64,000 bases of DNA from Ginglymostoma cirratum. Taxonomy: Eukaryota. Positions 8,808 to 45,960 of this stretch are shown here, one piece after another (within the stretch, counting starts at the first letter, position 1; every line of letters begins with the position of its first letter). Location: the NCBI GenBank assembly GCA_024137785.1, contig JAHRHZ010000048.1, positions 5,975,618 through 6,039,617 on the forward strand. Direction: 5' to 3'. Made by a program: the position numbers and the translations under genes. The notes beneath the pieces were generated by a model. The model was not told where the DNA came from, made no database searches, and was given only the letters and a program-made list of their open reading frames with translations.

Positions 8808-9337
8808 GAGGATGGGGTGAGGTAGTGGTATTGTCACTGGACTAACAATCCAGATACTGAGGCATCATGCTCTGGAAACATAGCTTTGAATCGCATCATC
8901 TAGATGAGGAAATTTGAATTCATTTAGTAAATCTAGAATTAAGAGCTAGTCTAATGGTGGCCATGAAACCATTATCAATGCTATCAAAACCCATCCAGTT
9001 TACTATAAAGTCCTTATGGAATGGAAAATCTGCTATCCTTGCCTAGGCTGGCCTATATGTGGCTCCAGATCCACAGTAATGAGGCTGACTTTTAAATGGC
9101 CTAGCAAGCTGCACAGTTGTATCGGACTGCTGAAGTCTAATAAAAGGAAAGAAACCGGACACACCACCCGACATCAACCAAGACACCAAAAACAACATGG
9201 GCACGCACAGCCTTGTCAACCCTGCAAAACCCCCTCACTAATATCTCGGATATTTTGCCAAAACTGGTCCACAGTCTTGTCCAGAAACAGCCTGACACAG
9301 TCATTCTCACAAAATTATCCATGACACCATCATCAGG
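8808..9337 (+). mobile_element. tRNA-headed LINE, 5' part (head plus start of APE)
   Basis: tRNA-like head, then QPDTVILT endonuclease motif; homologous to 42046-42450 and 10530-10920 (-). Confidence 0.7.
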
Positions 9338-9339
9338 AA

Positions 9340-10920
9340 GAGGTTTCCATGCCTATCTTTAACCTGACACTATGAGGCTTCAGGTATTTTGAGTCAATGT
9401 TGAGGATTCACAGTGCAAGCCTGGCTTGTATACCACCATGCCAAAATGGACAGTTTGGCTAAGATGGATAAGCATTTCTAGCTGAAGACTGCAAATATTT
9501 CAGCCTTATCTTTTGCACTAATGCACTGGGCTACCCCATTATGAGGTTGGGGATGTTTGTGGATTATCCTCCTCCAGTGAGTTGTTTAATTGTCCACCGC
9601 CAGTCATGACTGGATGTGACATGACTACAGAGCTTTGATTTGATCTGTTGGTTGTGGAATTGCATGGCTCTGTCCATCAGTTCCTACATATGTTGTTTGG
9701 CACAAGTAGTCCTGTTTTGTTGCTTCACCAGGTTGAAACCTCATTTTCTGGAATGCTTGGCACTGCTCCTGGCATGCCCTCCTGCACTCATCATTGAACC
9801 AGGGTTGATCCACTGGCTCGATGGTAATGCCAGGCTGAGATCACAGGTTGTGGTTGGAGTACAATTCAGCTGATGGCCAGCGTACAATTCATTTGATGGC
9901 CCACAGGGCCTCATGGATGCCCAATCTTCAGTTGCGAGATCTGTTTGAAGTCTGTCCCATTTAGTTTGGTGATACTGCTACACAGCACGATGGAGGATAT
10001 TCTCAATGTGAAGATGGGACTTTGTATCCAAAATGTCTGTGTGGTGGTCACTTTTACTGATATGGACATGGACAGAGAAATGCATCTGCAGCAGGCAGAT
10101 CTGAGAGAATGAGGTCAACTATGTTTTTTTCCCTTTTGTTGGTTCCCTCGCCAGCTGCTGCACATCCAGTCTAGCAGCAATGGCCTTTAGGACTCGATTT
10201 GTTCCTAACCAGCTTGAGCACTGAACCACTCTTGGTGGTGGTCACGAAAGTCCGAGCGTACATTCTGTACTCTTGGCACTCACAGTGCTTCCTCCAAATG
10301 CTGTTCAACACACACTAATTATAAACCGAGAGGAGCAATATGTGGCAATCAGCAGGTTTCCTTGACCACGTTTGACCTGGCATCAGAAGATATCATGATG
10401 TCAGAGATCAATGTAGAGGATAACATTCAAACCCAGATGTATATACTTATGGCATTACCTTGCTGGGTCTGTTCTACCAGTGGGACAGGACATACCCAGG
10501 GATGGTTTTGGTGCTGTGGAATGTGTGTGTAAGGTATGATTCCTTGAGTATGACGATGTCAGGCTCTTGCTTGACTAGCACTAGGCCCCAGATGATAGTA
10601 AGGAGGACTAACTGGTTGTGTTTGCCATAGTCGATGCCTTATTTCCACTTTTCTAGCAGTTGATACAACTGAATGCTTGTTAGGCCTATTCACAGGGCAA
10701 ATATGAGTCAACCACATTGCTGAGAGTCCAGGGTCAATTCAAGAACCAGAGAGATATTTCCCACAATCGATACTGGCTTCGTGACTTTCAAGTCATTGGA
10801 CACTTAATTCCAGATTTTTATTGATCTGCTGTGGTGGGATTCGAAACCAAGTCCCTAGAACATTAACTGCATCCCTCGACTACTACTTTAACAACAATAC
10901 CACTAGGGCATCGCCTCTCC
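9340..10920 (-). mobile_element. tRNA-headed CR1/L2-group LINE, 5' half
   Basis: Head with ggtttcgaatccc B box at ~10836-10848; VKQEPDIVILKESYL (APE) at ~10530-10575; DQPWFNDECRRA linker. Confidence 0.8.
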
Positions 10921-11015
10921 TGGTGCGCTTAGACTATAAGATGGATAAAGAACAAAGGATACACATGGTGCAAACAAATTTTCAACAAAATATTAGAAGT
11001 TGTTTTTATTTTTAC

Positions 11016-11153
11016 CTGTTCTAGAATCTTCTGTAAGTGAACGTAAGCTTCAAGTGGAGTCAATTTTAGCTCCATTATTAGTCGATCTATTTTGTTAATG
11101 ACTAAAACTGGACGAATATTTTCCAACCAGGCCTGGCGTAACACTGCTTGCGT
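11016..11153 (-). CDS. EFL1: EFL1 coding exon 5
   Basis: ttttcag acceptor, 138 nt, [49 protein letters not shown]|gtaaaa; NKID (G4) motif. Confidence 0.97.
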
Positions 11154-11455
11154 CTGAAAATAGAACAGCAACACTCCTGCTGATTTCCACATGGGAAGAA
11201 TTAATTCAACATTCACAGTACAGCAACTCAAAATGTTTTGGTGGTGCATACTAATTACTCTATTTCACTGCAAAATTTGCTAAAATATTAGTATTGAGAG
11301 TACCTATGAATAGTTAAAAACACATCTGGGTGAGTAAAATATTTCACTCTACTGTATTAAAAATGTCTCTGAAACAAAGGCACTTACAGCTTTGTACGTA
11401 TTTACTGTAAGTTTGAATTCTCAGTGAACAAAGTTTACTTGTTCCTTTTGGTTAC

Positions 11456-11720: not shown

Positions 11721-11853
11721 GAGATAACAGGCATGGGGCTGGATGAACACAGCAGGTCAAGCAGCATCATAGGAGCAGGAAAACTTGACGTTTCGGGCCT
11801 AAACCCTTCATCAGAAATCTCGGATTCTCCAGCATCTGCAGTACCTTTTATCT
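11721..11853 (-). mobile_element. Penelope mini-element (family A): inverted arm plus forward tail; intact hammerhead at 11783-11818 (-)
   Basis: Reverse complement of the family A repeat; flanked by ctttaaacttttatgt at 11705-11720 and 11854-11869. Confidence 0.88.
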
Positions 11854-12680
11854 CTTTAAACTTTTATGTTTTCAGTTTCTGATTCTTATTTTTTACCTCA
11901 AGTCCAGCTTAATATTATCCATTACATCAGCAGAACAACTGACAAGATTTATATGATCATTCCTTCTTAGTGAATCGGAATTTTTTGAGAGTTTCTCTTC
12001 AGTCTCAACCACTTCAAGTTATCTTAGTGGTGGATATATTGACAAACAGGTGAACTCGCCTGATTTTTTTTTTTCTCAGTATATTTTCCCAGGATTAAAA
12101 TAAATTCAATCAACATGTTCAGAAATGTAATTATACACCTTTGCAGCAAGTGGGGCTTCACCCTAGCATCTTGACTCAGAGATAGGGACACTACCAATGA
12201 TAGTACCACATACGGACCTTAACTTCAAGGATTAGTCCAAAAGAAAAACATCTGTATTTATAATTAGGAGGAGAGACTTTAGGTACAAGCTCTATTTCTA
12301 CTGGAGAAGTGAACACCATGATACATAGGAGCAGAAGACAGCCAATCAGCCCATCAAGTCTGCTCCACCAATAAGTTAAATCATGGCTCATCTGATAGTC
12401 CTCAACTCTACTTTCCTGCCTTTTCCCCCATACCCTTGATTCCTTTACTGATTAACAAGCTGTCTTATCTCAGCCTCGAATATACTCAAGGACCCAGCCT
12501 CTACTGCCCACAGATTCACTATCCTCTTGATAAAAGAAATTCCACCACATCTGCATCTTAAATGTGTAACCCCGTAGGCTAAGATAATGCCCTCTGGTCC
12601 TTGGCTCTCCCACAAGGGAAAACAACCTCTCAAAATCTACCCTGCGATTCTGTGATGTTTAGGTTTTTGAAATTGCTTAC

Positions 12681-14086: not shown

Positions 14087-14345
14087 AGGGGTTGCACAGT
14101 GGCTGATGGTTAGCACCGTTGCTTCACAGTGCCAGAGACCCGGGTTCGATTCCACCCTTGCCTGTCTGTCTGTGTGGAGTTTGCACATTTTCCCAGTGTC
14201 TGTGTAGTTTCCTCCAGGTGCTCCAGTTCCTCCCACAATCCAATGTGCAGGTTAGGTGGATTGGCCATGAGAAATGCAGGGGTGGGTCTAGGTGGGGTGC
14301 TCTTCAGAGAGTCAGCCTGCTTCCATACTATAAGGATTCTGTGAT
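14087..14345 (+). mobile_element. HE1-like SINE (partial copies also at 7822-8011 and 27105-27256)
   Basis: Same head, core and tail as 434-761. Confidence 0.85.
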
Positions 14346-14713: not shown

Positions 14714-15650
14714 TGTGACAATACTTTGCCCTGGTTTGTTTTATGAAGAAAGGTTGAGACAGAGGAGAAGAACAGTCTGCTCAAAGCCCATAAAGTAAAC
14801 AGCTTGTGAGGCCTGGGATTTTTTTTTTTAAATGTAGCAATAATAGGAGCAGCCTGAATGGGTGGGGACACAAAACGGGATTTTTAATTTTACCTTTGAG
14901 CAGTTGTTGGGGTCTTGAAGCTGATGTGGAAGCTCCTGTTCCCCCTCTGTTACAGCTAAAAGCTGAGGCTCTCTTCCGACTGCTAAAGTTGCCTGTGAGA
15001 CAATCTATTTTACCGAATTTGCCTTTGCTAATGGTGCGATTATGGGATGTTACTCTATTGGAACAGTTAATTAGTAGTAGTTAATACATGTACTACTTTG
15101 TTAAGCATTTTGATAGAGTTAGAGTTAAGTCAATTCTTTTGTTTTTGTCTATTTGTACACTACAGTTAAAATACAAAGTGTGTTTTACTTAAAGTTTAGT
15201 AGTTTGACCAATCAAATTGTATTTGGAATGTGACGTTGAAAATACACTTACCTTGAAAATCAGAAAAAGTTAGGGTCTAGGATATTTTCACGGAATCCCT
15301 ACAGTGTGGAAATAGGCCATTCAGCCCAACAAGCCCAACCGCCCCTCCGAAGAGCATCCCACCTTAACTCATTCCCTTACCCCTGCATTTCCCCATGTCT
15401 AACCCACCTAACCTAAACATCCCTGGACACTATGGGGCAATTTAGCATGGCCAATCCACCTACCCTGCACATCTTTGGACTGTGGGAGGAAACTGGAACA
15501 CCCGGAGGAAACCGATGCAGACGTAGGGAGAATGTGCAAACTCCACACAGACAGTTGCCCGAGGGTGGAATTGAACCCGGGTTCCTGGCGCTGTGAGATA
15601 GCGGTGCTAACCACTGATCGACTGTGCCGCATTTGGTCTGATCCATAATA
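14714..15650 (+). mobile_element. Probable solo LTR
   Basis: Starts TGTGAC, ends ATAATA (decayed ATAACA), 4-bp duplication TAGC at 14710-14713 and 15651-15654. Confidence 0.55.
15292..15630 (-). mobile_element. HE1-like SINE nested in a solo LTR
   Basis: Reverse complement of the same SINE family. Confidence 0.85.
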
Positions 15651-15887
15651 TAGCAGAAAATAAACATAATCTTTTTGTAACTCAAGAAAACCTTGCAGTT
15701 GACTCCATACAACTATAGGAAAAATTAGTTAATACGTTTTAATTAGAAAAAGGTATGGTCACGTGCTAAAAACAACTTAAACATTCATCGTGACCAACTG
15801 GTCGAATGAAAAGAATGGAGCCAATGCACCCTACCTCACCTGGTCAGACATCACAAAAATGGCACTCGTACATAAACGTGGGGGAAT

Positions 15888-17399
15888 GGGCAGATGCTGG
15901 TATAGTAGTAATACCACTGGACCAGTAAGTCAGAGGTCCGGGCTATTCCTCTGGGGATGAACCTCCACAAATATCCCCATTCTCAGTGATGGACGAGCCC
16001 AGGACATCAATGAAAAAGGCAAAACTCAAGCATTCATAACTATCCTGAGCCAGATGGCCTGAGAGAATGATCCATCTCCATCTCCCCCAGAGGTACTCAG
16101 GATCACAAATGACAGTCTTCAATCGTTTGGTTCACTCCACATGATGACATTAAATGGATGAAGTCAGTGGATACTGCAAAGGCTATGTATCCTGACAACA
16201 TCTAGCCAACAGTTCTGAAGACATGTGTTGCAGAACAAGCTGCACCCCTAACTAACCTGTTTCAGTACAGATACAACACTGGCATCTAGAAGACCATGTG
16301 GAAGATTGATGAGGTATGTGCTGCCCACAAAAAAAAGGACAAATCCAACATATCCAATTACTGCCTTATCAATCTAGTCTCCATCATCAACAAAGTAATT
16401 GAAGGGGTCACCATCTATACTATTAAGCAGCACAAATAGGAATAACCTGTTCAGTTTGGGCTCTGGCAGGGCCACCAAGATCCTGGCCTCATCACAGCCT
16501 TGGCCAAATATGGCCAACAGAGCTGAGTTACAGAGGTGAGGTGAGAGCAATACCTTTGAACGTGGCCTTGTTGGCAATCAAGTAAGCCACCAAGGAGCCC
16601 CAGCAAAATTTATGTTAATGAAAATCAAGGGGTAAGGTCTCCATAGATTGGGGTCATGCCTAGCACAAAGGAAATTGATTACAGTTAGAAAATCCAGTCA
16701 TTCCATAACAATTCTGTAAATTGCTTCATGTTGGTGACCTATACCCATCACAGAGAATGAGAAACAGATATCCCCCCATCATAAGGTCAGAGTTAAGGAT
16801 GTTTACTTATGATTGTACAATGTTCAGCACTATTCACAATGACGTAAGTACTGACAGGGTGCTTGCTGATATGCAGCAAGATCTGAACGACATTTAGGCT
16901 TGAGCTGATAAGTAACAAGTAACATTTGCATCACACAAGTGCCAAGGAAAGACCATCTGCAATAACAGAGAATCAAACCATCTCCCCCTGATATCAGTGG
17001 CATTACCATCACTGAATCGTCCATTATTAGTGACAAGAAATTAAACTGGGCAAGCCATTTAAATACGCTGGTGGTGAAAGCAGGGGAACAGCTAGATGTA
17101 CTACAGCAACTTGCAAAGGTTCAGCAAAACCATCATTCAAACTGATAAGCACCACCATCTAGAAGAACAAGGGTGCCAGATGCCAGGAAAAACCACCACC
17201 TGCAGTTTCCTCCAAGCCAAACACAACCCTGACTTGGAACTAAAATCGCCATTCCTTTGCTATCACTACGCAAAATCCTCAATCTCCTTCCCTAACAGCA
17301 CAACTTGTGAGTGCACCTGCATCGGACAGACTGCAGCAGTTCAAGAGGCAGCTCACCATCACTTTCTCAAGGGCATCACAAGTGATATCCCACGATAAA
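15888..17399 (+). mobile_element. Internally deleted copy of the tRNA-headed LINE (head, RT, tail)
   Basis: Head followed by degenerate RT collinear with 43330-44300; shared tail gcagcagttcaagaggcagctcacc. Confidence 0.75.
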
Positions 17400-17503
17400 G
17401 CAGAAATACCAGAAAACAGTTATTTCAGATCTATTATTGACAAAGTAATTGTTTGGATAAATCCCCCTCTTGCAAGTAATAGGCATAATTTGTCATGGCT
17501 TAC

Positions 17504-18564: not shown

Positions 18565-19397
18565 CCATTGAACTTGGGCCTCTTAACCCAAAGGTAAAGA
18601 CACTACTACTGTGCCACAAGAGCCCACAAGGGCAGCTTTCATGATATTTTCTAGTTTACCTGCTCACAGATGTTATTAGACACGTTCAGAGTATGTGAGC
18701 CTTTTGGCTCAGAGGAAGGGACATTATCATTACACCACAAAAGCCCCTCAACATTGTTTAGCTATAATACACCACTAAATCGGGTGGGACGTTAATGTGT
18801 GCATTCTGGCTCAAAGGTAGGGACACTACCACTGTGACACAAGAGCCCTTAACAGCAGCTTTCCAGATGTTTTTTAAAAATCAACTTGTACAGAAATGTC
18901 GTTGCACACCTCTGGATCAGTTTGGATTTGAACGTGGGATTCTTGGATCTGGTAGGTACACTTCCAATGGCACCACAACAGCCCTCGCAGATTTAAAGTG
19001 CTCCTTGCAGAAAACATACAGGGCATTTAATAATCCAACACTTGAAGTGTGTCTTGAATCCATAACCTTCTGCCCCAAAGACAAGTGCTACCAAAAGAAC
19101 AAACTGTAGACTAACCTGTTAACAATTATTGCCTGACAGTTGATTTAATTGTACTTTCTAATCAACCTATTTGTAGATGTTATTACACACATCTGGAGCA
19201 GGTTGGACTTGAACTCAGGCCTCCTGGCCCAGAGGTAGGGACATAATAATCAGTCACAAGAGCCGTTAAGAGCAGCTTTCCAGATATTTTCTGATCAACC
19301 TGTTCAGGAATGTTATGACACACCTCTGGAGCAGGCAGGACTTCAACCACTGCCTCCTGGCGCAAAGACAGAGTCACTACACTGCGCCACAGAGCCC
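18565..19397 (-). repeat. Tandem array of 6-7 diverged ~130-bp tRNA-derived units
   Basis: Minus-strand consensus gggctcttgTGGCACAGTGGtagtgtccctacctctgagccaggaggcctGGGTTCAAGTCCcacctgctccagaggtgtg...; dispersed monomers at ~12100-12205, 23110-23215, 37577-37683 and 44780-44878. Confidence 0.8.
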
Positions 19398-21290
19398 TCT
19401 TGGCAGTTTGATCATTTTCAGCACTGGATCATGATAATTTAATGGTCTATATCATTATAGATTAATTAATGGAGGGACATTAATTGCTTGAACTTAGATT
19501 GAGATAGTGGCAGTATACAGGGCACTGGGGGAAAGGAGGGGGAACTATCAAGAGTTTTATAAAAAAAAAGTGGGGTGATAAAATATTTTTTTACACAGGT
19601 AGTTAGGATCTTGAATGAACTGCCTGCAACTGTGGTGGAGGCAGACTCAGTTATTATTTAAATAGAAACATGCAGAATCATGGGCAAAAGACAGGAGACT
19701 GGCACTAAGTCAAAATACTCAGAGACCTGATATAGACACCATGAACCTTTCCGCATCATAACAATTGTGTGATTCTATGTACCTGGACTCCCAAATTTCT
19801 TTGGACTTCCACTGTACCTATCTTTTCACCACTTAAAAAGTAGCCAGCTCTATACTTACATTGAAATAAGTTTGCCAATGTTTTGTCCAATCATTTCTTG
19901 GTAATTTTATACTTCAATTTACACTGCGTATAATGCCTCCTACCTGTGTGCCATTGGCATTTTGGATATATGGTTTTCTACCATATTATTCAAGTCATTA
20001 ATAAATATGACTAGTAGTTTGTGAACACAAAATCCTGTAGGATTCTACTATTTAGCCTCACATTAATTAGAGTAGCTGTCCATTAACATTTACTCACACT
20101 CCTGCTGCTCAGTCAATTACCCAACCTGGTCCGTAATTTACCATCACTTTCACCAGTTTTACATCATATTAAATAATTTTGAATAGCTTCCACTGACTGT
20201 CATTTCAACCATTAACAGACTTGTCCAATTTATTGAGGAAAGTTTCAGTCTCATCACATTGAATTCAGTCCTCCCTTAAATCTAGAAACATGGCCACCGT
20301 ATTGTGTATTTCCCTTTCAAGCAGAACACTGAATTCAATCATATTGTGACCAAATGATCATATTACAAGGCTGTTAAATGAATTTAGCTCATTGCTCATT
20401 ATTATCTCTAATGTGGAATGTCCTTTTTTCCCTAGATCATATTGTTGTAGAACTCCATCAAGAGCAGTCACTCTCTGACTTGGTCGCCTGCTACCCAATC
20501 CATATGAATATAAACTTGCCCATCAAAACCCACTGCCTAAACTTTATGCTTATCTAAATCTTAGTTAAGGGGTTTACTTCACATATGCCAACTTGGGCCC
20601 TGCACAAAACTTCCAATACAGTCTTAAATTCTATTTCTTAATTGTACCCATAAAGTTACCATTGTTACTTCATCTCATATCATGTCCTCCCTCATTACTG
20701 CAGTGATTTCATCCTTATTCACTAAAGCTACACGTCCTTACTATCATTTTCCCTATCTTTACTTATAATGTCTATATCTAAATCCAAGTCCTTGTCATTT
20801 TGCAGCCAGAAAGGATTATTTTAACCCTTTATTCCCTCTTTAGACAAGACTCGGTTAATTTGTTGAAACAGTTATTCAAAAATGGCATACAGCTCAAATC
20901 TTTGCTGTAAAAACAACTGTTTTATTCATTTCTTTTAATCAGATAAGCTTCTAATCAACTATTTCTACAGATGACAATTTCCAATTAAAATTTACACATT
21001 TACTCACCCATATTTCTATCCATCAGTGTTCAAATTTCAGTTTAGTGCCCAATCATATTCAAACAAACACACATGTCTATCTTATCCAATCATAACATGG
21101 TCTTACGAAACTGTAAATATATCCAACTGTAGGTACGTACTTGAGACTGTAAGAAAACCTATACTGTCCCTTTAACCTGCTTTCACAGCCACATATCATA
21201 CCAAACATGTTGAGTTTGTAGTTCATTCAGTTTTCTCTTTACAGTCTAAACATTGTGTAAAAATTACTGCTTGGACCACTATCCCCAACC

Positions 21291-21640
21291 AGCGCAGTAG
21301 CTCAGTGGTTAGCACTGCTGCCTCAGTGCCAGGAAGCCGGGTTTGATTCTAGCCTTTAGTGACTGTCTGTGCAAAGTTTGCACTTTGTCCCCGTGTCTGT
21401 GTGGGTTTCCACTGAATGCACAGTTTCTCCCACAGTCCAAAGATGGGCAGGTCAGGTAGATTGGCCGTGTTAAATTGCCCAGTAATGTCCAGAGATGTGC
21501 AGACTAGGTGGATTAGTGATAGCAACTGAGGGGTTACAGGGTTAGGGTAGGGAACTAGGTCTAGGTAAGATGCTCTTCAGAGGGTTGGTACAGACTTGAT
21601 GGGCCAAATGGCCTCTTTCCACAATGTAGGGATTCTATGA
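21291..21640 (+). mobile_element. HE1-like SINE
   Basis: gcagtagctcagtggttagcactgctgcc head, V core, tail. Confidence 0.85.
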
Positions 21641-23511
21641 TCTTATCCTATCCTTTAATGCTAATAGATTATTCAGAAGTTAAATTAATATTTATCTGAC
21701 ATCATTTACTTGTGAACACCCAATTTCTGCTTCCATTAGAAACCTGGTACCAGCCTGATTCAGGTGGAGTCCATTCCAATGGTGCCATTCCTTGCTGTCT
21801 CAATAATGGACCCAGGAGCATATGAATAGCCTGACATAGCCCTCACCCTGGTACTAAGCTGGCATGCAACACATCAGACTCTCAGAATTGCTTAAAAAGG
21901 GTGCTATCATTTCCCCTACAATTATCACATGAAGCTTCCCTCTTCCATGCTTTGGACAACTTCTTGCTGCAAGGTGTCCTGATCTGCATGTTGGTTCTCC
22001 TTCCAGCAGTCTTTATTCCTTATCCTCACAGGTAGCAACTACATTGTACCTGTTGATTAGGATCAATTTCTGTATGTGCATTCTCATTCTCATTCTCATT
22101 CTTTACTTTACCTCTCACCATTGGTCACACAAGCCTCATTATGAAGTTCCATCTCCCTGCAAGATTGACCAAAGTCTGGAGCAAATTATCCTGATGCTTG
22201 GATATATAGGGAACGCAGATCAGTATCTCCAACTTGCATTCCAGCTCTTTGGCTCTCAATCAGAGAGATTCAAGGTAGAGGCAGCTACTCGAAACGTGTT
22301 TACTGAGAACAGTCTTGCTGTCTACTAACTGGAACATACTGCAGTCCAGACACACTGAAGAGTCATTCTGACTTAAAACATAACTCTGTTCTTCTTTTCA
22401 CAGGATGAGCACTAAGCTTGACATGCAGATATGCATTTTTTTTTAAAAGTTACTCACATGTTTTGGCAGAATTTTTGCTCAGCACCAGCAACAAGTTTCA
22501 CTTTAAATAAGTAAATCAATAATAACAAAGTTTTATAACTTTTTTTAAAATAATAAATCATTGTGTTGTGTTTCAGGTGTCTGGTAATTTTTCTAACATG
22601 GAGTAGCAAGTCTCCGAAGCAAAATAGTTGAGAACAGCTTCAACACTGGCACCTACCTGACAATGTGGAAAATTGCCCAGCTATATCACATTCACAAAAA
22701 GCAGCACAAATCCAAACCAGACAATCAGCACCTATCAATCTACTCTCAATCATCAGCACAGTGATTGAAGGTGTCACCAATAGTGCTATCAATCCGCAAT
22801 CATGTTCAGTTTGGATTCTGCCAGAGCTACTCAGCTCCAGACCTCACTAGAGCCTTACACCAAACATGAACAAAAGAGCTGAATTCCAGGAGTGAGGTGA
22901 GAGTGACAGCTGTTAACATCAAGGCTGTTAAGGTGAAACAAAAATGTCTGTGGATGCTGGAAATCTGAAACAAAAGGAAGCACTGGAGAAACTCAGCAGG
23001 TCTGGCAGCATCCAGAGAGAAACCAGAGTTCACATTTTGAGTCCGGTGACCCTTCATCCGAAAAAAAGTCAACTCCAGGACATCTCAACAGTAGTTCCTC
23101 AGGGGAAATATTTTTAGTCAACCTGTTGGATGTATTATGACACAATTCTGGAGGAGGACTTGAACCCAGGTCTCCTGGCTCGGAGGTAAGGACACTACCA
23201 CTGTGCCACAAAAGCCTGACTTCCTAAATTATTTTTTAATTAATCTGGTCAGAGATTAATCCTAATCTCTGGAGTAGGTGGGACTTGAATATGGGTAGAT
23301 ACACTACCACTTTTAGCTGGCAACTGGGGATGAGCAATAAATGCTGGCCCAGCCAGAGACGCCCACATCCCATAAATGAATGAAAAAGGCAACATATAAA
23401 CAAATAATGTCATGGTATCAGGGCCATCTCCTCAAACTTATTTATATTTAATCAAATTTTGGAAGGGTAATAACATAAGCAAACCAGTTAAGAAAAAATG
23501 AGAAACCTTAC

Positions 23512-23602: not shown

Positions 23603-24264
23603 TGTGAATTTGATTCTGGAACAATATATGAAGAAAATAATAGTACTGTACCATTCCACTAACAATCCAAGCTGAATGTTCTAATGTGTTATATTTTACA
23701 TTCAGTATGCTAAATACTATAAATGCATAAAACAGTACAGCAATCCAGGTTAAGTCAAGATGTTACTCTTAAGATTGCTTAAAACTTTTATAATAAAGTG
23801 CTGAAAAATCAGAGGTTGCAGAAAACTAGCAAGTAGCAAATAAAATGAAGTTGCCAGAAGCAGTGAGGATGAGTTTGCAATTACAGGTTGACATTAGCTA
23901 CCGCGATATTATGGCTTCCTAACTGAAGTGATACAATACTATACTTAATTGAGGAATTTCCTAAAGGTATCTCACTCAGAAACTATTACAGGTCTTTGGA
24001 ATAACAATGCATTGCCCTCAGTATTTTGGAGACTAGATGAGTTAACCATGATCCATAGCTATCCCTCAATCACACACAAGTTGCCCATCGTTGACTACAT
24101 TCATAACATGGAAAAATAGTTGGCAGAGTACAAATATCAGCCTCAAAAACAATAAAGGTGTAAGAGCAGGCCGATCTTGCAGCACCACTGGCAATGAACG
24201 TCCCTCATGGCAAGTGTTCCAGGCTCAGCACTGCTTGGCCCTCTACTCCATGAGCAGGGCAACG

Positions 24265-25990: not shown

Positions 25991-25998
25991 CTGACCTC

Positions 25999-26006: not shown

Positions 26007-26038
26007 CGCCGACGCTGCGCCGTTGCCGAGTCGCGGCG

Positions 26039-35902: not shown

Positions 35903-36302
35903 ACCATACTCCTAATGAATACTAATAAAAATTACTCAGCACAGAACAAAGCATGAAAATAAATACATCCTAGTATCCCATTTATTTAATTTACAATAAA
36001 AGTAAAACACATGAAAGAATTCAATATTGAGCTTTTTAATTAGCATCAGGGGACTATTCGGAGTTGGTATTATCAAACAGACCTAATCAACATTTTTGTA
36101 ACAGCCATCAATAACGATTCCAATGTTAAGTCAGATACTTTAATACTGTTTGAGCAATAGTAGAAATAATGGAAAAAACACGCAGTGAAATTTGGCTTCT
36201 CCAACTGTCTCTCAATAATCTCATTGTTTTATAGCTACCATTTATGCAGGATTTGGATATTTTATTCCAAAGCATCGTACTTGCAGTAAGATGTTATCAT
36301 CA

Positions 36303-36642
36303 CAGAATCCCTATAGTGTGGAAACAGGCCATTCAGCCCAACAAGTCCACACCGATTCTCTGAAGAGTATCCGACCTAGACTCACCCCCTTACCCTATCC
36401 CTGCAGTTCCAATGGCTAATCCACCAAACCTACACATCCCTGGACACTATGGGCAATTTAGCATGGCCAATCCACCTAACCTGCACATCTTTGGACTATG
36501 GGACAAAACCGGACCACATGGCAGAAACCCACATAGACACTGGGAGAATGTGCAAACTCCACACAGACAGTTGCCTGAGAGTGGAATTGAACCCAGGTCC
36601 CTGGCTCTGTGAGGCAGCAGTGTTAACCACTGAGCCACCATG
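36303..36642 (-). mobile_element. HE1-like SINE
   Basis: Full-length reverse copy. Confidence 0.85.
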
Positions 36643-37912
36643 GTAAATTTTAGTCATATCACAAAGTTATTAAAGCATCTCCTGGACAGAGCGCAGAAAG
36701 AAATGTCAGGGATGGGGGAATTACACATCCAAAACAGAACCCTCACAGCTTTCCTTCCATTAAAATTATTGCTAATAAATTGAAGCAGTCTTTGAAATAC
36801 TTATAAAATTCTTACCATTTGGTTTTCATCACTGTGTCTCACCAAGATGATTTTTTTCTCAGCTAAGTGGCTGGAGCAGAAATGTAGTTTCATAACACTG
36901 AAACGTGACAGGTACTGTATACTGTTACTTCAGTTTGAATTACAGCAGCACACTACTACCAAAATAATTTTCCATCTAACTATTTATTTTCATGATAGAT
37001 ATCCCGTAATATTTTAAAATGGTAGGAATTGGTTAAATTTTCATTTAAGATGAATCATGTTACCAAATACCATTATATCCCACATTTTGGCTGAACATTT
37101 ATGAATCTCTTAAATTTGTATTTTCATGGATTGCAATATCATTTCAACTCCTCAATGTGCATTTCATGTTTAAAATCATGATGAGAGAATATAGTCAAAT
37201 AAGTAATGCCCCCTCAGTTACTGTAACAGAGACACCACAGTAAAAATCCAGAAATGATAATGCTTAATAATCTGCTTTATTGAAAATTAACTGATCTTTC
37301 TGAATGTAAATGACACGCTACAAACGCTGCAGACCATAAATCTATTATTCAGATTATCCAGATGTTTATGAGCAGACCCAAGCAATTCATGGCATCACTT
37401 TAGTGCAGTACGTTGGAAGTGGAAACGTGGGTGATATAGTATTTGGATGAGTAAAGAAACCCAGTAATTACAGTGATGTTGAAGCTTAATAAAGATTGAT
37501 CCTTGAATGGTGGAGTAGGCTTGAGGGGCTGAGTGGCCATTTCTTGATTCTTTTCCTTTTTTTTGTAAGTAATCTATTTTCTAATCAACCTGTTCAGAGG
37601 TGTTAATACACATCTCTGGAGCAGGTGGGACTTGAACCTGGGCCTCACAGTACAGGGGTAAGGACACTACTATTGTGCCATAAAACCATTGTTAAGTCAT
37701 TTCTAAAGCTTCATTGCTGTTTTACACTTCAGCGAAGTACTTATTTTTGTGATGTTTGTAGTTAGGCTGTCCAATGTCATTTCTATTATCAATTAAATTT
37801 CAAAATTCAGAAATGATTTTGTCCCAAGGATTCTGGACTGGAGAGGAGATGGTGAATAATGTTATTCCTTATGTGAAATACGTGGCTGCTCTTCTAAACA
37901 GCAGGGATTATT

Positions 37913-38562
37913 CACTCAGAGATAGTAGGAACTGCCGATGATGGAGTCTGAGATAACAAGGTGTAGAGCTGGATGAACACAGCAGGCCAAGCTGTATTAC
38001 CTCCTGTAATACCTTCTTCTGAAGATGGGTCTAGACCCTTCTTCAGAAGAAGGTATTNNNNNNNNNNNNNNNNNNNNNNNNNNNNNNNNNNNNNNNNNNN
38101 NNNNNNNNNNNNNNNNNNNNNNNNNNNNNNNNNNNNNNNNNNNNNNNNNNNNNNNNNNNNNNNNNNNNNNNNNNNNNNNNNNNNNNNNNNNNNNNNNNNN
38201 NNNNNNNNNNNNNNNNNNNNNNNNNNNNNNNNNNNNNNNNNNNNNNNNNNNNNNNNNNNNNNNNNNNNNNNNNNNNNNNNNNNNNNNNNNNNNNNNNNNN
38301 NNNNNNNNNNNNNNNNNNNNNNNNNNNNNNNNNNNNNNNNNNNNNNNNNNNNNNNNNNNNNNNNNNNNNNNNNNNNNNNNNNNNNNNNNNNNNNNNNNNN
38401 NNNNNNNNNNNNNNNNNNNNNNNNNNNNNNNNNNNNNNNNNNNNNNNNNNNNNNNNNAATACCTTCTTCTGAAGAAGGGTCTAGACCCATCTTCAGAAGA
38501 AGGTATTACAGGAGGTAATACAGCTTGGCCTGCTGTGTTCATCCAGCTCTACACCTTGTTAT
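37913..38562. mobile_element. Palindromic family A Penelope mini-element spanning a 400-N assembly gap (38058-38457)
   Basis: Arms are reverse complements; TSD agcagggattatt at 37900-37912 and 38563-38575. Confidence 0.8.
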
Positions 38563-41500
38563 AGCAGGGATTATTATTTGTTATTGTCCAAACACCTAAT
38601 TACAATACACAAGGTAGGGCAGTTTCACTGGTTGAAATCAGCCAAAACAGCAGAAAAGGTCAAGGAATTGCAAGTGCAGTCCAGCACAGATTAAGTTTCC
38701 ACAATCTTTTGTATTAGTCCAGAAATATGCTGGACACGGAGCTGAACATGACACTGCCAACCCCTTCAGATTAAACTAAGCACCAATGTGTTTGCGCTAT
38801 TTATAGCTTTTCACAGTTCCTCAATGAGACCATTCAAAAATAACTTTCTTTTATTGGAAGGGTACCAATACCTTCTAAACACCTAAAAAGTATATGATTT
38901 ATAATTATACACTGCTACAAAAGAAAATAATGTTTGGTTTGCACAGTTTTTAGTCATTTTCAGCAGTTAAATTTGGACACTCACCATTGAAATATAGACA
39001 CGCTCTTAAGAATTTTTTTTTCTATTCAAATTACTTTCAACTGTACTACCAAAGCTGCAATAGATAACTACTTGATAAATCAAGTTTTTTTTTTCAAGAA
39101 AAACACTGATTAAGACTTTAAAACACTCCCTGATTGCTCTGGTTTATATGTGACTTCATGTTTGGAATTACACAATATAATTTACCAACTAAGGGTGACT
39201 GATGATGTTTCATGTCCTGGAGAGGTTTTGTGCATTTTTTTAATTAAAAGATTGGTTGCTATAGATTGTTACCTTGAAACTACATGGTACGGTTGAACTG
39301 TAGTATAGTTTCAGCATAGAAGGAATCCATTCAGCCTTTTGTAGCCATACCAGCTCTCTGCAAGATCAGATCAGTTAATCCACTTCTGCATCCATTTACC
39401 ATCGACCCAAATCCCAGAACTCATCCCTTCACTATTGTGGATGTTCCTTTCACTCCAGTAGTTCAAGGTGGCAGCTCTACACCACCTTCTTCAGCACAAT
39501 CAGGAATGGACAATAAATGCTGGAATAGGCAGCAACATCAAAATCCAATTATGAACAAAATTTAAAAAATACTGTTCTGATGTGTTGACACTAACTTCAT
39601 TTTTAATCTTAAAAAGAAATATTTCAGTAGAATAAATCATTGAGTACAAAGTGTATAAATTGTGAAATTAATCTTCAACATCTAATTGCGTTCTTTCACA
39701 ATTTAAGAATTATTAACAGCTTAAATGAATACAAGTACACAAGTATGTGTTCTCAATGATTTATAGGATTTTCACTAAAGTGGGTAAAATACCTTTAAAA
39801 TTGATCAGCCACACAAATAATGAAAAGTAAGTGTGAGCTTTGTTTTCCAAACTCAGGAATAAACAAACATTTGCACATTTGTGAAATGCAAATCTGATCT
39901 GACAAATATGGTTGCACAGAGAAAAATTAAAAATTAACAATCAAACATCAAAGTGCCAGCAACCCTATCTCAATTCCAACCTCCATTATTAATTCTTTTT
40001 AAAAAATGTCCATTTTTAATATGCCATTGCTGGATTAATAACAAGTTTAAAAGCCAGTCTCAGAATTTGCATGTGCTTATTCAATATAGTAATTGAAAAG
40101 CATACCATTTTACATTAGAGCTGCAGAGGTTTAATGGTCCTCTGGGACTGTGGTGACTTTCCTTTTACCTTTATAATCAAAACAGTTGTGAACAATTTTT
40201 AATTCTTGTACAATTTATATCCAGCATGCTGATTTCAATCACCAACCTATTTAATTTTACCCTTGTGTTACTGCCTTAACAATCAGCATATTAGATGTAT
40301 AATTTACCATCATGTTCATGTTTGAAACTTAACATTTTAGAGAGTCGTAACTGCATATGTGTACAAAACTGAAAGAATTATGTTTCCTTTTGTATGTCTG
40401 TGCTTTGTAAAATGCAGTAAGAAGAGTATGAGGTAACACAATTAATAGGGAGAAATAGGCTCAGTGAAACTACAACAAAGCAACGATCAGACTGGGTGAT
40501 ATTATGAGTTCGATCAGAAAGCAAGGTGTTTCATGACAGTGTAATAAAAACAAAAAAATGCTGGAAGTATTCTGCAGGTGGCAGTTAGCATTTGAGGACA
40601 TAGTAACATAACTAATAGGCTGAACTTAATGGCCGCCCTGAAGTGAGTTTAGTTGCATGGGAGTCTTTAATAGGATAGAAAGGTGTGGGTGGGGCCGCTG
40701 CCACCTTCTTACGTCTGCCTGATTAGATCTGAGGCATGAAACTTTCCTGGCTCACTGAAATTAATGGACCTTCAAGGACAACATCCTGCTACCGCTAGCA
40801 CACGATATTCAGGAAGCCTGAAAAGTTGTAGGCACTGGAGGAATTCCTTCCAATCAAAATCAGTAAATGAAAATTCTGGTAGATTAGATGAAAAGACAAA
40901 CTCTAACCCAGAGCTCAACGCTGAGGCAACCATATCAAAGAAGATGCTTTCAGTACTGCAAAGAGTTTGATTTTTGATAGGCACAAACTGCTCTCAATTT
41001 GATTACAAAATAAGTATGTTTGCAGCATGGATCTTTTATGGAAGGACAGTTTCTTTGAGACATTACTAGATCTTTTGTTGAAAGACTAGGCACTCTGTCA
41101 AACACCATAGTGCTTGAAGAAAGCATAGAACTGAAGATAAGGCTACTCACCTGGGAGTCCTGGGGTGGTAGCAGCCTGAAAATGCATCTGGTCATTTACT
41201 GCTCCGTTTTCACAACCCTTCAAAATGCTCTGATAGGACATTGGACGGCTTGCCTAGGCTCCTTTGATGTAGTCATGCAGTCCTTAGCATGTGGCGGAGT
41301 TACATGCTGCCCATTTAGCTGGGCATTGAGAGGCCTAACAAATGGCTAGTACAAATGGATTTCTTGAGGCCACTTGAAAAAAAGCTTCCTTGTAACTTTA
41401 TACCTTTGTGTGTCCAGAAGGTCCAGGATCACTCCTGGGCCCGCAATCAAGAGCTGGCCCAGTGCTTTGCATATGTAAGGTACCTGGCGGGTGGCTCTAC

Positions 41501-42045
41501 TTATCTCTGGCCCAATCTACAGACAGCCCGGTGTGCAGCTAGCCTACTCTTATCTCTCTTACTGAACTGCAACAGGGCTTGGCTCCTGAACTAAGGGCTG
41601 TGCAGGCCTCAAGATGGCTCAAACCTACGACAATAACAATATGCAGACACTGAGCATTTTGTGCCTTGATTTAAAATTGCCCCAGTATGTTAGTGCAAGG
41701 CAATCGTACGATATAAAATACGGGTCATCATAAATAATTTACGTTTTATAATGGCTGTTTCAAACAATCTTCAAATTTTAACAGCAATAGGTACTCAGAT
41801 CTCCATAGGGCTATTGTTTAAAGATAAACAGGTTAGAATATTTTCCCAGTATTGTCACCTAAATATAGTTTGGTTAACTAGATATTTAGGTTTAACAATT
41901 GATAATTACAACGAAAGCTTTTCTACGCCTATATTCTCCTGATTTAAGGTCCTCCAGACAGCTTATGTTCTACAAAACGTTTTGTTTCTCCTCCCGAGCT
42001 CCTTTCATAACTCTCATTCTATTTACTGCATATTGAAGTGTCACT

Positions 42046-45000
42046 GGGGAAGCATTGATGTATTACATTGGACTATGTAATTCAGAGCTAATGCTCTGGG
42101 GACATGGGTTAGAATCCCACCACACAGATGGTGAAATTTGAATTTACTTAATAAATCTAGGATTAAAAGCTAGTCTACTGTCTGAAATGGTGCAATTCAA
42201 TTGCATCAAACTGCTATGAAGCCTAAAATAATGGAATGTAGCAAGTTGGAGTGTCTGGCATCAACTTAAGCACTTGTAATGACAATGGCAAACCCAGCCC
42301 TGTCAACCTTACTGTCCTCCTCACTCCCACCTAGAGAGGTTGTGACAAATGTTGGACATCTGTCCCACAGACTAATCAAGCAGTAACACGACATAGTCAC
42401 ATTCACAGACTGGTAACTTTTAGACAATGTCATCAGCCCTGGGTATATCCTGCTTCGCCAGTGAGACAGACTCACCAGAGGTGGTGGCACAGTGGTATAC
42501 AGACAGAAGGGAGTTTCCCTGGGAGATGCCATAAAGTGTCATGACTTTGTAAGTGTCATGGTCAAACATGGTGAAAGAAACCACTGATTACCACTGATGA
42601 TTCTACACTCCTCCATGTTGAGCACCACTTGGAGGAAGTGCTGAGGGTGGCAAGGGGACAGATTGTACTCTAGTGGGTGACCTCAATGTCTATCACCAAC
42701 AGTAGCTCAGCAGAACCACTGCCAACTAAGTTGGCTGAGTCTGAAAGGATACAATTTCTATGCTGCATCTGTGGCCGGTGTTGAGGAAATCAACAAGAAG
42801 GAAAATATTCTTGATCTCTTCCTGTCCAATCTATCAGCTGCAGATGCATCTGACCGTGACTCTTTGAGTAAGAGTGATCACCATATGTTTTCTTGTGGAG
42901 ACATAGTCCATTTTCGGTTTGAGAGTACCTTCCATTGTGTTGTGCAGCACTACCACTGTGGTAATGGACAGATCCAGTAATTCAACCTTGGGCATCCATT
43001 AACAGGAGCAAAATTGTATTCAAACATCTGTAACCTCATGGCTCACATAAACCCTACTCTACCATTATCGTCAAGCCAGGGGATCAATCTTGATTCAATG
43101 GAAAGTGCAGGAGGGTATACATGAAGCAGTACCAGGCATACCTAAAAATGAGGAATCAACATGGTGAAGCCACCAAACAGGAATAGTTGTGTACCAAACA
43201 GTAGAAGCAGCAAGTGATGCAAAGTATAAAGTGGTCCAATACCACTGGATCAGATCTAGTTCTGCAGTCCTTTGACACCCATTTGTGAACAGTGGTGGAT
43301 AATTAAACAATTAACATGAGGAGGAGGTTTCACAACTATGCCCTACTCAATGATGGGGGCAACAAACATATCAGGGCAAAAATTAGGAGTGAAGCATTTG
43401 CACCCACATTCAGCCTAAAGGGCTGAAGGAATACTCCATCTTGAGCTCTGCTTGAACTCCTCAATATCACAGATGACAGTCTTCAACCAATTCGATTCAC
43501 TCCACATGATGTAAAGAAATGGCTGAATTCAGTGGATACTGCAAAAGCTGTGGACCCTGGCAACATTTCCAGTAATAGTACTGAAGAATGCTATAGAACT
43601 AACTGCAGCCCTAGTCAGACTGTCCCAATGAAGTTACAACACTGACATCTAGCTTACAATGTGGAAAATTGCCTGGGTATTTTCTGTGCCACATAAAGCA
43701 GAACAAATCCACCCCAGCCAAGTACTGCCACAATAGTCCACTCTTGATCATTAGTAAGGCATTTGGGGAGCCGTCTAAACTGGCCATCAAGATGCACTCG
43801 CTCAGAAATAATTAGTCTGCTCATTGATGCTCAGTTTGGGCTTGAATAGAACCATTCAGCTCCTGAACCTATTACAGGCTTCGGCCTAACATAGACAAAA
43901 GATTTGAATTCCAGAGGCAAGTAACACACTTTACATCAAAGCAGTCCAGGAGTGTTTTCGACATGAAGGACTCTAGCAAGAATGGAGTCAATGGGTCTCA
44001 GAGGGAAATCTCTGCTGGTTGGCATCATACCAGGCACGTAGGAAAATGGTGGTGGTTGTCAGAAATCAATCATCTCCGCTCCAGGATATCATTGCAAGAG
44101 TTCCTCAGCGTAGTGTCTTAGGCCCAAAAATCTTCAGCTACTTTATCAACGACCTTCCTTCTAGTGGGAATGTTCCCTATGATTGTACTGTTCAACACTG
44201 TTCACAAATCCTCTGATGCTGAAGCAATCTATGTTCATATACAGCAAGAATTTGACAAAAAAAAATCCAGTTTTGGCTGAAAAGTGACAAGCAACATTTG
44301 TTCATAGACATTTATAGCATTGAAGGAAGCCGTTCAACCTATCATGTCCTTATTGATCAACATAGGTCTGACTACACTACACTAATTCCATCCTCCTGAA
44401 GGCTATGGTATTATCAGTGAATATCTAAAAACTGCTTAAATGTTATGAGAGGTTTTAACTCAATCACCCTTCCAGGCAGTGAGGTCACCCGCTGGGTGAA
44501 ACTATTTCTCCTTGACTCTCCTCTCAGCTTCTAACTGTTACCTTAAATTCACGGCCAGCTTATTGGCCCCTCTACAAATAGAAATAATGTTGTTCTAGCT
44601 ACCTTATCTATGCCCCGCATAATGTTCCACACCTCTATCAGTTCTCCTATCAACCTTCACTGCTCCCAGGACAATAATCCCAGCCTATCCAGCTTTTTTT
44701 CAGAGCTCAGGCCCACCAGCATCCTGGAAAAGTTTCTCTGTGCCCTCTCTGGTGCTATCACATCCTTCATATAACTATGTTCCTAATCAACCTGCTCAGT
44801 GATGTTATTACACACCTCTAGAGCAGGTGGGTCTTGAGCTCAGGTCTCTTGGTTCAGGGCTAGGACCACAAGAGGGCTCCACATCCTTCCTATGATGTGG
44901 TAACAAGAACTACATGCAGCTGTGTCCTAACTCTCATTTTATACAGTTCCAGCATAATCTCTCTGCTCTTGTATTCTATGCCTTTGCTAATAAAGTCATG

Positions 45001-45960
45001 TATCCCATATTCCTTCTTAACCAACTTATCTACCCACCCTGCTGCTTTCAGGGATCTGTGAACTACATATCAAAATGCTTCTGATCATTAGTACTGCCAC
45101 TTACAATGTAATCCCTTGCCTTGTTAACCCTCCCCAAGTGCATTATCTTGCATGTTTCTGATTGAATTCCATTTGCCACTGCTCTGCCCACCTGACCACT
45201 CCATTGATATCCTTCTGTGGTTTATGAAAATTCTCCCATTTTCCACCCTACCAAATTTTGCGTCGGCCACATACATTTTGATCATAATTCCCACACCTAA
45301 GTCCAAATCATTATTGTACATCGTAAATAGCACCATGACCTCTGTGGAACCTTACAACAGACTTTCAATCACAGAGCCATCCGTCCACCAATACCCTCTG
45401 CCTCTTGTCTCTCAGCCATTTTGGATCTAATGTGCCACTTTGCCTTGGATCCCGTGGGCTCTTACTTTCTTGACCAGTTGGCTCGTATCAAAAACCTTCC
45501 TAAAGTCCATGTAGGACCAAATATAATGCCATTATCAACATTCCTGGTTACCTACCTAAAAAAAAAAATCAAAATCATCAAACGTGACATTCCCTTAACA
45601 AGTCCATGCTGACTAGCCTTGATTATCCTTGTCCCTTCAAGTGCAGTTATATTCTGTCCGTTAAAAGTCCTTCTAATAACTTTCCCACCACTGAGGTTAG
45701 ATACACAGGAACACTACCACCTGCAAGTTCACCACAAAGCCACCTAACCCTAACCCTAACCCTAGCCACTCATCATCCTGACTTGGAAACATATCACCAT
45801 TCCTTCACTGTCGCTAGGTCAAAATCCTGGAATTCTCTCCCTTATGGCATTTTATGTGTCAAGCCATAGCAGGTGGACTGCAGCAGTTCAAGAAGGCAGC
45901 TCACCACCACCTTCTCAAAGGCAACTAGGGGTGCAGTCATTCCACAAATGAATATATAAA
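42046..45960 (+). mobile_element. Near full-length degenerate tRNA-headed LINE, interrupted by a minus-strand CR1 (~44303-45695)
   Basis: Head (gggttagaatccc), APE (ENILDLFLSN, SDH), RT (VPQRSVLGPKIFSYFINDLP), tail at ~45705-45960. Confidence 0.8.
45744..45763 (-). repeat. Short interstitial telomeric repeat (TTAGGG)x3.3
   Basis: ctaaccctaaccctaaccct flanked by AGCCAC on both sides. Confidence 0.75.

Follow-up and report, generated by a model that had tools for sequence, protein, structure and literature searches.

[quoted passage not shown] They have no ORF1 and an A-rich tail. The best explanation overall would be, with the odds slightly in its favour, that elasmobranch Zenon is a Pol III-driven coding LINE and that a SINE in the same window consists of its 5′ and 3′ ends.

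Three copies pass from the head to the start of APE, as the preliminary description had proposed; their mutual alignment covers the head, the junction and the endonuclease start (69–71% pairwise over 346–380 aligned bases; scores of 142–183, compared with a best shuffle of 78–88 in 100 shuffles). The copy at 8808 (8808..9330, forward strand; A box at 8818–8828, degraded B box at 8883–8893) is a 3′-truncated 5′ part with the head, a body that extends to about 9115, a basic leader and the first APE codons. Facing it is the copy at 10920 (9465..10920, reverse strand; A box at 10910–10900, B box at 10847–10837), with the head, a body with a deletion of about 50 nt, APE and the linker, 3′-truncated before RT. 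A mid-APE piece of the same family lies between the two (9335..9460, reverse strand) and is inverted relative to the 8808 copy. The longest copy, at 42046 (42044..44310, forward strand; B box at 42107–42117, A box broken), has the head, a body with a deletion of about 150 nt, APE, the linker and RT. It is interrupted by an unrelated CR1-type piece with a short nested repeat inside (44310..45700, reverse strand), beyond which lies a Zenon 3′ end with the last ORF codons, 3′ UTR and A-rich end (45705..45960, forward strand). Approximately 430 nt of Zenon are absent across this piece, and we infer that the two sides are one element. The A-rich ends at about 45950–45960 and, in a SINE-type copy, at about 2215–2223 are both decayed, and inspection by eye found no target-site duplication at 42046/45960.

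From the start of the head to the PD-x-V-I-L motif the distance is 483 nt at 8808, 357 nt at 10920 and 341 nt at 42046, the latter two carrying the body deletions. A profile of full-length relatives found APE, linker and RT pieces in order in the 42046 and 10920 copies; it missed the first ~30 APE codons of the 8808 copy, the only ones present there, which were found by alignment. The 500 nt upstream of six heads were unrelated in 14 of 15 pairs (the remaining pair beat 100 of 100 shuffles). The short distance from head to APE, the unrelated flanks and the domain order bear out the earlier claim that there is no room for an ORF1. A relative, P0166, bears PF14529 and PF00078. We checked the assembly against contigs of public runs (14,636 and 19,469 in two runs), which are silent on RNA start, strand and level. 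Contig depth falls to one beyond 10950, and there is therefore nothing multi-copy upstream of the 10920 head. Contigs also bridge both insertions to their flanks in an organism that is about 4% different, so these are not assembly artefacts.

Other copies are more reduced. The internally deleted copy at 15887..17400 (forward strand) runs from a head into the linker, RT, the C-terminus and the tail. It had been described as a head joined to RT; the join lies in the linker, roughly 50 codons ahead of the RT block, and the head has no B box and ends at about 15957 (15887–15957). Further pieces comprise a headless RT fragment (22606..22926, forward strand), two headless 3′-end fragments (46871–47056 and 47116–47257, together 46871..47257, forward strand), a short 3′-end fragment (39407..39519, forward strand; E = 1.8 × 10−9) and a 3′-end fragment that runs off the window (63874..64000, reverse strand).

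The LINE family and its absence of ORF1 are already published. Seven elasmobranch Zenon consensus sequences of 2,886–3,314 nt are available from five species: white shark (CarCar_Zenon-1), stingray (HypSab_Zenon-1), whale shark (RhiTyp_Zenon-1), catshark (ScyCan_Zenon-1) and three from dogfish (SquAca_Zenon-1 to 3) (Stuart et al. 2026, Table S2, PMC13343379); lack of ORF1 is normal for Zenon (PMC13343379). All seven begin with the head, followed by the same body and then the leader, so that the junction is shared by three window copies and every consensus, and neither a difference between junctions nor an ORF1 upstream of the head was seen. Within the first 400 nt of each consensus, five of six window words of 13–23 nt match only the seven Zenon rows and the sixth matches nothing; a further 12-mer matches only Zenon rows, the order of the words agrees and an exact 23-mer from the 8808 head is present in CarCar_Zenon-1. 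We see no difference in sequence between the window copies and this family, which share words in the head, body and junction as well as length, single frame, lack of ORF1 and, as far as the decayed ends show, an A-rich tail. In an RT tree (FastTree), the window RT joins shark fragments with a support of 1.0; this clade is nested among single-frame relatives and a Branchiostoma protein, with weak deeper nodes, and the placement in Zenon rests on PMC13343379. The words ‘tRNA’ and ‘promoter’ occur zero times in the main text and preprint of that study, which takes up neither the head nor the Pol III reading nor the partner SINE.

The boxes of the head are better preserved in the published sequences than in the window. 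The A-box word first reported is exact in the 8808 and 10920 copies but broken at 42046, and the B-box word is exact in no copy (one mismatch in 10920 and 42046, three in 8808). Both boxes are canonical in the published consensus sequences, except that the stingray B box is degenerate. Six B-box words searched against the first 400 nt of about 1,003 CR1-group consensus sequences gave six matching rows, at the start of six of the seven elasmobranch Zenons and in none of the other ~996. The majority sequence of five window heads is called as a tRNA by ARAGORN at 90% of its threshold, with a 5-bp anticodon stem and a long variable arm (0 of 2,000 dinucleotide shuffles called). The call held in 43 of 50 random tie-breaks and in 11–36 of 50 for leave-one-out sets; this relaxed call is labelled a possible pseudogene. 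It is also made at 58498, in the copy at 58190..58514 (reverse strand), one of only two calls at this setting across the whole window. At default settings no window head is called, and the Rfam tRNA model matched nothing in the window or on two single heads. The acceptor and T stems pair poorly, and RNAalifold on five decayed heads gave only a 6-bp hairpin without covariation. A box-matrix test was passed by 1 of 1,000 shuffles, but the B box drove it and the A box was misplaced. Real phage tRNAs were not picked up by a profile built from the heads (best E about 1), and in pairwise comparison with 40 phage tRNAs the highest similarity lay within the range of shuffles (37 of 500). A phage-tRNA profile run with nhmmer gave no hit in any sequence and is hence uninformative.

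The short form joins the body of the LINE to its tail. This had been described as a SINE at 1890–2223, and in the copy (1887..2223, forward strand) the body is indeed joined to the Zenon tail, which comprises the last codons, the 3′ UTR and an AATAAA-like end; the copy starts near the B box, at profile position 64 of 290, without an A box of its own. A separate head with the first part of the body (1436..1638, forward strand; E = 8.7 × 10−6, outside the profile training set) is parted from it by a palindromic repeat (1639–1886). Compared with four LINE-type tails, the tail at 1890 matched two well (0 and 1 of 500 shuffles) and two poorly (27 and 33 of 500). A second SINE-type copy, missed earlier, has a complete head and body and about 20 nt of tail (58514–58190, reverse strand); it departs from the LINE path at the same point, and its short tail is not significant alone. 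The shared breakpoint is represented by two window copies and by at least one public-run contig with a tail-like loose end there, among the best 24 of 3,773; the full tail is present in only one window copy, the one without an A box. Of the features of a tRNA-derived SINE (SINE2), the short element shows a tRNA-related head with A and B boxes and a 3′ tail common to its partner LINE. It would be the head, body and tail minus the coding frame, mobilised in trans by the LINE protein, and any deletion that kept head and tail would at once be a working SINE.

The preliminary description offered a choice between a LINE that captured a SINE head and a SINE that arose by deletion from the LINE; one family with a constitutive head, and a SINE that shares head, body and tail with it, stands, and either order of events is plausible. 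There is about an even chance that the LINE came first: a tRNA would have been added at the end of its 5′ UTR, and an internal deletion would later have brought this 5′ UTR and the tail together to give the SINE. The family yields deletion forms that break elsewhere (for example, at 15888), a deep contig skips from the end of the body to the start of APE (at least one record, among the best 24 of 3,773 loose ends), lepidopteran Zenon yielded deletion derivatives at least four times (PMC6740152), and, as Zenon-library matches are scarce in chimaera, a SINE of this head and body is unlikely to have been older and widespread. However, the body was traced to the 5′ UTR of no headless relative, a weak test at 23–47% protein identity. 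Somewhat less probable, but still plausible, is that a tRNA SINE with a Zenon tail came first and that template switching or recombination attached a Zenon coding frame to the end of its body, after which the headed LINE displaced its headless parent. The point at which the SINE breaks is also the 5′ limit of the APE–RT frame; read by eye, the stingray, white-shark and catshark consensus sequences have the stop that opens this frame just ahead of the breakpoint and no in-frame AUG in their visible 400 nt, as if the original start had been replaced, and relatives start with an AUG-led basic leader of similar length. Yet no headless elasmobranch Zenon is listed among the seven, and the body is unlike the Deu, Meta and UCON3 alignments compared with it and the V-type SINE copies in the window. 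These two histories split the question of direction, and each is compatible with the Pol III reading.

Under that reading, Pol III would start at the +1 of the head and read the whole element, the sense strand of which would avoid T-run terminators; translation of the uncapped RNA would be cap-independent or begin at a non-AUG codon, and target-primed reverse transcription would then copy it. We regard this sequence of steps as evenly poised. Pol III RNAs are uncapped, and translation of the element thus needs an extra assumption; 3.3 kb is also long for Pol III. On the sense strand of 6,629 nt of LINE copies, runs of T4 or longer number 9 against 17.1 expected (12 of 1,000 base shuffles as low) and runs of T5 or longer 0 against 4.2 (13 of 1,000), whereas CR1 copies in the same window are not depleted (25 against 19.8 and 11 against 5.3, respectively). 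None of 12 headless relatives falls in the lowest 5%. For five T4 runs a second copy covers the position, and in no case does it have the run too, so that these runs look like decay. By eye, T4 runs are absent from the first 400 nt of the seven headed consensus sequences and occur in all three headless vertebrate Zenons. Dinucleotide shuffles give no depletion (13 against 14.1); with head and body excluded, T4+ runs number 10 against 15.3 (103 of 1,000) and T5+ runs 0 against 3.7 (18 of 1,000), and C3 runs are low too (12 of 1,000). The depletion is thus modest, borderline for T4 and dependent on null and cut.

It is less likely, although a serious alternative, that Pol II read-through from host genes or flanks makes the long element, that the head is a remnant or serves in 5′ processing, through tRNA-like cleavage at +1, and that Pol III drives only the SINE. 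This would explain the fixed 5′ end without a 3.3-kb Pol III transcript and sits well with the borderline T4 signal, and the head would match the self-cleaving ribozymes of R2, RTE and Ingi in its role; one report describes ribozymes that free 5′ ends in six LINE clades (PMC5786205), and another places 39% of whale-shark CR1-Zenon-like sequence in introns (10.1101/443036). Read-through does not predict the absent T5 runs, the unshared T4 runs or canonical A and B boxes in six of seven consensus sequences despite poorly paired acceptor and T stems.

Zenon makes up 0.7–6.8% of four elasmobranch genomes compared with 0.018% in chimaera, with hundreds to thousands of long copies per genome. Three non-elasmobranch vertebrate Zenons, hagfish and coelacanth among them, begin otherwise and without the head, and none of 28 metagenome relatives has it; the head would have been gained in the elasmobranch line. 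Intact frames are rare (0 of 2,313, 1 of 1,419 and 3 of 612), which, with no in-frame AUG seen, could suggest that the headed form is no autonomous element but a defective chimera that depends on another LINE to spread it in trans. We consider this improbable: few intact frames are normal in old LINE families, the tail of the headed form is its own and that of the SINE, no headless partner is listed among the consensus sequences, the frame is recognisable from APE to the C-terminus and the shark fragments form one fully supported clade. Separate insertions of SINEs upstream of truncated LINEs, or chance, might account for the varying body deletions but are ruled out by the junction shared across the window copies and five species; nor does any SINE tail separate the body from APE.

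In Lepidoptera, Zenon derivatives with internal deletions are already known: Persaeus combines the 5′ and 3′ ends of a single-ORF Zenon of 3.1–3.7 kb and has a poly-A (Wang et al. 2019, PMC6740152); it lacks tRNA, 5S or 7SL homology and a Pol III promoter, whereas the long and short shark forms both carry a tRNA-type head. Bov-tA, WALLSI2 and CoeSINE4 likewise join a tRNA head to LINE 5′ and 3′ parts, but there the head is on the SINE only (Kojima 2018, PMC5786205), the LINE is taken as Pol II-driven and only RTE and Vingi contribute to SINEs on bipartite LINEs; here the coding LINE has the head. ZenoSINE (PMC6685494) and the bivalve V, Core, Meta and Deu SINEs (PMC11481361) are mobilised through a Zenon tail, and only that tail is common to the LINE. 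SacSINE1 and the Deu-SINEs of sharks are tRNA-headed, but SacSINE1 ends in an L2 tail and numbers 218,294 copies in chimaera (PMC5499810), where this Zenon family is nearly absent. A first guess that the body is the SacSINE1 Deu domain with an L2 partner was rejected, as body words are absent from the published Deu alignment (PMC7245038, supplement) and a 20-nt Deu word has no match in the window at three mismatches; the L2 clade was rejected on the indirect ground that the family matches consensus sequences placed in the CR1/Zenon clade (PMC13343379). Viral, metagenome and prokaryote collections gave no match to a 23-base body pattern, a 15-base junction pattern hit 120 chance loci among viral contigs, none resembling the copies, and a shark protein fragment gave nothing useful against prokaryote and viral contigs. 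Pfam on 14 short frames, at least two of them mis-set, gave no APE or RT family; a word-based protein search with the RT fragment listed 42 candidates, none scored, and a literature search for a BovB/SINE-fusion precedent found nothing relevant.

LINEs are by textbook definition coding and transcribed by Pol II, and SINEs non-coding and transcribed by Pol III. From sequence, it is possible, at just under an even chance, that elasmobranch Zenon is an autonomous, protein-coding LINE that gave up Pol II transcription in favour of a tRNA-type Pol III promoter, cleared its 3.3-kb coding strand of T-run terminators, is translated without a cap or in-frame AUG, reached about 7% of some shark genomes and yielded a SINE from its own two ends. 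With consensus sequences already in print, the key tests would be cheap. Should the head be no more than a remnant or processing signal, what is left would be an unremarked matter of annotation, with SINE copies masked as Zenon LINE and inflating its genome share. If the reading is true, a family that makes up as much as 6.8% of shark genomes, with a tRNA-type promoter kept across both sharks and rays, would break the LINE/SINE split; a natural Pol III RNA would encode a 1,000-residue enzyme, and there would be a direct route from LINE to SINE, or back, with a bearing on the origin of SINE bodies.

The head-bearing copies in the window, at 8808 (+), 10920 (−) and 42046 (+), belong to a single repeat family, as indicated by self-comparison and alignment. 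As proposed in the preliminary description, they share a tRNA-like head that runs into an AP endonuclease (APE): they can be aligned from head through body and junction to the endonuclease start at 69–71% over 346–380 bases, with scores roughly double the highest from 100 shuffles. The head start lies 483 nt (8808), 357 nt (10920) and 341 nt (42046) from the PD-x-V-I-L motif, the shorter distances reflecting deletions within the body. APE, linker, reverse transcriptase (RT) and C-terminal pieces follow in order (profile built from nine relatives); both the endonuclease and the RT Pfam families are present in one relative (P0166), and neither was found by Pfam in the short, decayed frames of the window. 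Pairwise comparison of the 500 nt upstream of six heads shows no relationship in 14 of 15 pairs, and contig depth drops to a single record beyond 10950; there is therefore no ORF1 upstream of the head, as had been claimed. The insertions at 8808 and 10920 are both bridged to their flanks in public runs of an organism that is about 4% different, and are thus old and not assembly errors.

Some details of that description required revision. The promoter boxes are degenerate in the copies; the A-box word it quoted is exact in two of the three, the B-box word in none. The deleted copy at 15888 does carry a head on part of the LINE frame, but has no B box, and the join is to the linker ahead of RT. 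The SINE-type copy at 1890 has the body fused to a Zenon tail (significant matches to 2 of 4 LINE-type tails), but itself starts only near the B box; another, separate piece of head lies at 1436–1638. A second SINE-type copy lies at 58514–58190, its tail too short for scoring. Several rearrangements are visible. Between 8808 and 10920, two opposite, 3′-truncated copies face each other across an inverted mid-APE piece (9335–9460), which suggests an inversion or a deletion between inverted copies. At 1436–2223, a head and body piece is followed by a palindromic repeat of about 250 nt and then by the copy beginning near the B box, the join being located at a short word found in head and body alike. 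Within a Zenon tail, three and a half CCCTAA units of telomere type (45745–45767), accompanied by what looks like a short duplication of the adjoining bases, may mark a break that telomerase patched.

The repeats surround exons (2599–2958 and 10929–11264, minus strand) of a translation-factor-like GTPase gene, probably EFL1; the 10920 head, which shares their strand, begins about 90 nt past one of these exons. Short and often palindromic repeats form two families (1639–1886, 3807–3925, 22948–23062, 28006–28144, 58661–58805 and 62955–63064; 7–102, 5421–5554, 11721–11865, 25564–25660 and 63273–63428); they are young, as some copies are 97–100% alike. Another tRNA-headed SINE family (424–754, 7809–8014, 14094–14281, 15278–15642, 21290–21650 and 36299–36638), presumably V-type HE1, has a body unrelated to that of the Zenon SINE, and the Zenon body matched none of these V-type copies. 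GC-rich, nearly intact RT/GIY-YIG-like frames at 24050–25400 (+), which we assume to be a Penelope-like element, are younger than the Zenon copies. A short repeat of approximately 90-nt units, often tandem, occurs at 18568–18933, 19152–19367, 23109–23295, 37575–37685 and 44775–44866. An assembly gap of N between the arms of a 105-nt perfect inverted repeat (37912–38564) is likely to be an artefact.

The LINE family and its absence of ORF1 are already known: ORF1-less, poly-A-tailed Zenon elements, absent so far from repeat repositories, have been described in sharks and rays (Stuart et al. 2026, PMC13343379). They make up 6.8% of the white shark and whale shark genomes, 3.0% in sawfish, 0.75% in skate and 0.018% in chimaera (PMC13343379). 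We compared the window with the first 400 letters of each of the approximately 1,003 consensus sequences in Table S2 of that study. A 12-base word from the window body matches exactly seven rows, all elasmobranch Zenon (2886–3314 nt, five species); five of six further words match elasmobranch Zenon rows only and the sixth matches none. All seven consensus sequences open with the head, followed by the same body and then the leader; the junction is therefore invariant across sharks and rays, with no ORF1 ahead of the head. The window copies are elasmobranch Zenon by sequence and anatomy, RT placement resting on PMC13343379. The named proteins closest to the RT fragment belong to elasmobranchs (Heptranchias, Heterodontus, Rhincodon, Pristiophorus and Mobula), which identifies the window as elasmobranch DNA. 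Zenon RT–linker pieces are also spliced into predicted shark genes (P0162–P0169; aldo-keto reductase, LRRC32, anoctamin and DMBT1-like models), and these are probably gene-prediction errors.

The head is not remarked on in that study: ‘tRNA’ and ‘promoter’ have no occurrences in the text of PMC13343379 or its preprint. By eye, both boxes are canonical in the consensus heads, the A box lying near +9 and the B box near +73, except that the B box of the stingray is degenerate. Six B-box words (exact matches only, one word picked after being seen) match six rows, which are all elasmobranch Zenon; none of the other CR1-group consensus sequences contains any of them. At 90% of the ARAGORN threshold, the majority sequence of five window heads folds into a cloverleaf in which the 5-bp anticodon stem is perfect, the anticodon is AGT and the variable arm is long, and none of 2000 shuffles was called; the default threshold gave no head calls. 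The SINE-type copy at 58498 is called singly, as one of two calls across the entire window. The call, to Thr or Ile, is kept in 43 of 50 tie-breaks and in 11–36 of 50 per leave-one-out set; Ser and Leu tRNAs typically have a long variable arm. Rfam matched no single copy, likeness to 40 phage tRNAs was not significant and no covariation was found in the heads. We take the head to be tRNA-derived.

Head, body, single frame and tail are all present in the element, and on the most likely reading Pol III would transcribe it from its head. Sense-strand T-runs, the check proposed in the preliminary description, lend this modest support. Against base shuffles, the LINE copies (6629 nt) contain 9 runs of T4 or longer versus 17.1 expected (12 of 1000 as low) and none of T5 or longer versus 4.2 (13 of 1000), whereas four CR1 stretches of the window (5114 nt) contain 25 versus 19.8 and 11 versus 5.3. 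None of 12 headless relatives, the long, non-redundant ones from 28 metagenome sequences, falls in the lowest 5%. A second copy covers five of the nine T4 runs, and none of the five is common to both. The depletion vanishes under dinucleotide shuffles (13 versus 14.1), which preserve the low TT rate; with head and body excluded it is 10 versus 15.3 (103 of 1000) for T4 and 0 versus 3.7 (18 of 1000) for T5, and C3 is low too. By eye, T4 is absent from the first 400 nt of all seven headed consensus sequences, which are related to one another, and present in three of three headless vertebrate Zenons. Translation is the weak step, because Pol III RNA is uncapped. A stop about 12 nt ahead of the SINE breakpoint opens the APE–RT frame, which has no in-frame AUG in the first 400 nt (three consensus sequences, by eye), and an out-of-frame AUG follows soon after the breakpoint in six of seven (by eye), a pattern that suggests a start at a non-AUG codon, an internal start or a frameshift. 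The main rival, in which Pol II reads through and the head is a vestige or 5′ processing signal, seems to us less probable.

The short element consists of the entire 5′ untranslated part of the LINE plus its last codons and 3′ end. We give an even chance to its being a derivative of a headed Zenon LINE: further deletion forms exist (15888, and a joint in one deep contig), Zenon has repeatedly produced deletion derivatives in Lepidoptera (PMC6740152) and chimaera is nearly devoid of head and body. That an existing SINE acquired the LINE frame is a serious possibility at somewhat less than even odds, favoured by a breakpoint at the 5′ limit of the frame, where the AUG was apparently lost. SINE and LINE copies are equally decayed (64–74%), which gives no order between them, and the basis for a self-amplifying SINE family is two window copies and one contig. 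Zenon-tailed SINEs are already known (PMC6685494, PMC11481361). In RTE and Vingi, SINEs with a tRNA head and a LINE-derived remainder have been described, the LINE itself being presumed Pol II-driven (PMC5786205). SacSINE1 is a different element (PMC5499810, PMC4824008), and Deu, Meta and UCON3 were rejected as the body against the alignments in the PMC7245038 supplement (by eye and with three words), in which one word, a 10-mer, matched a UCON3 row with no likeness otherwise.

Searches of the open-access literature returned neither a report of an autonomous LINE headed by a tRNA-type Pol III promoter nor one of the SINE studied here; Repbase, Dfam, SINEBase, subscription journals, Zenodo files and bioRxiv supplements may contain either. 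Two hagfish and one coelacanth Zenon begin with unrelated sequence (the coelacanth 5′ end being of low confidence), and the Zenon-derived lepidopteran Persaeus is described as being without a Pol III promoter (PMC6740152). ARAGORN at the 90% setting, blastn and a head model all failed to detect a head in the 28 metagenome relatives (23–40% identity to the query), many on contigs that may be missing the true 5′ end, as did Rfam in 18 of them. Shark fragments form one clade nested among headless relatives (FastTree, 50 sequences). The head was therefore gained in the elasmobranch line. The observation is real and the family is known; what is new is that a coding LINE carries a head of the Pol III type.
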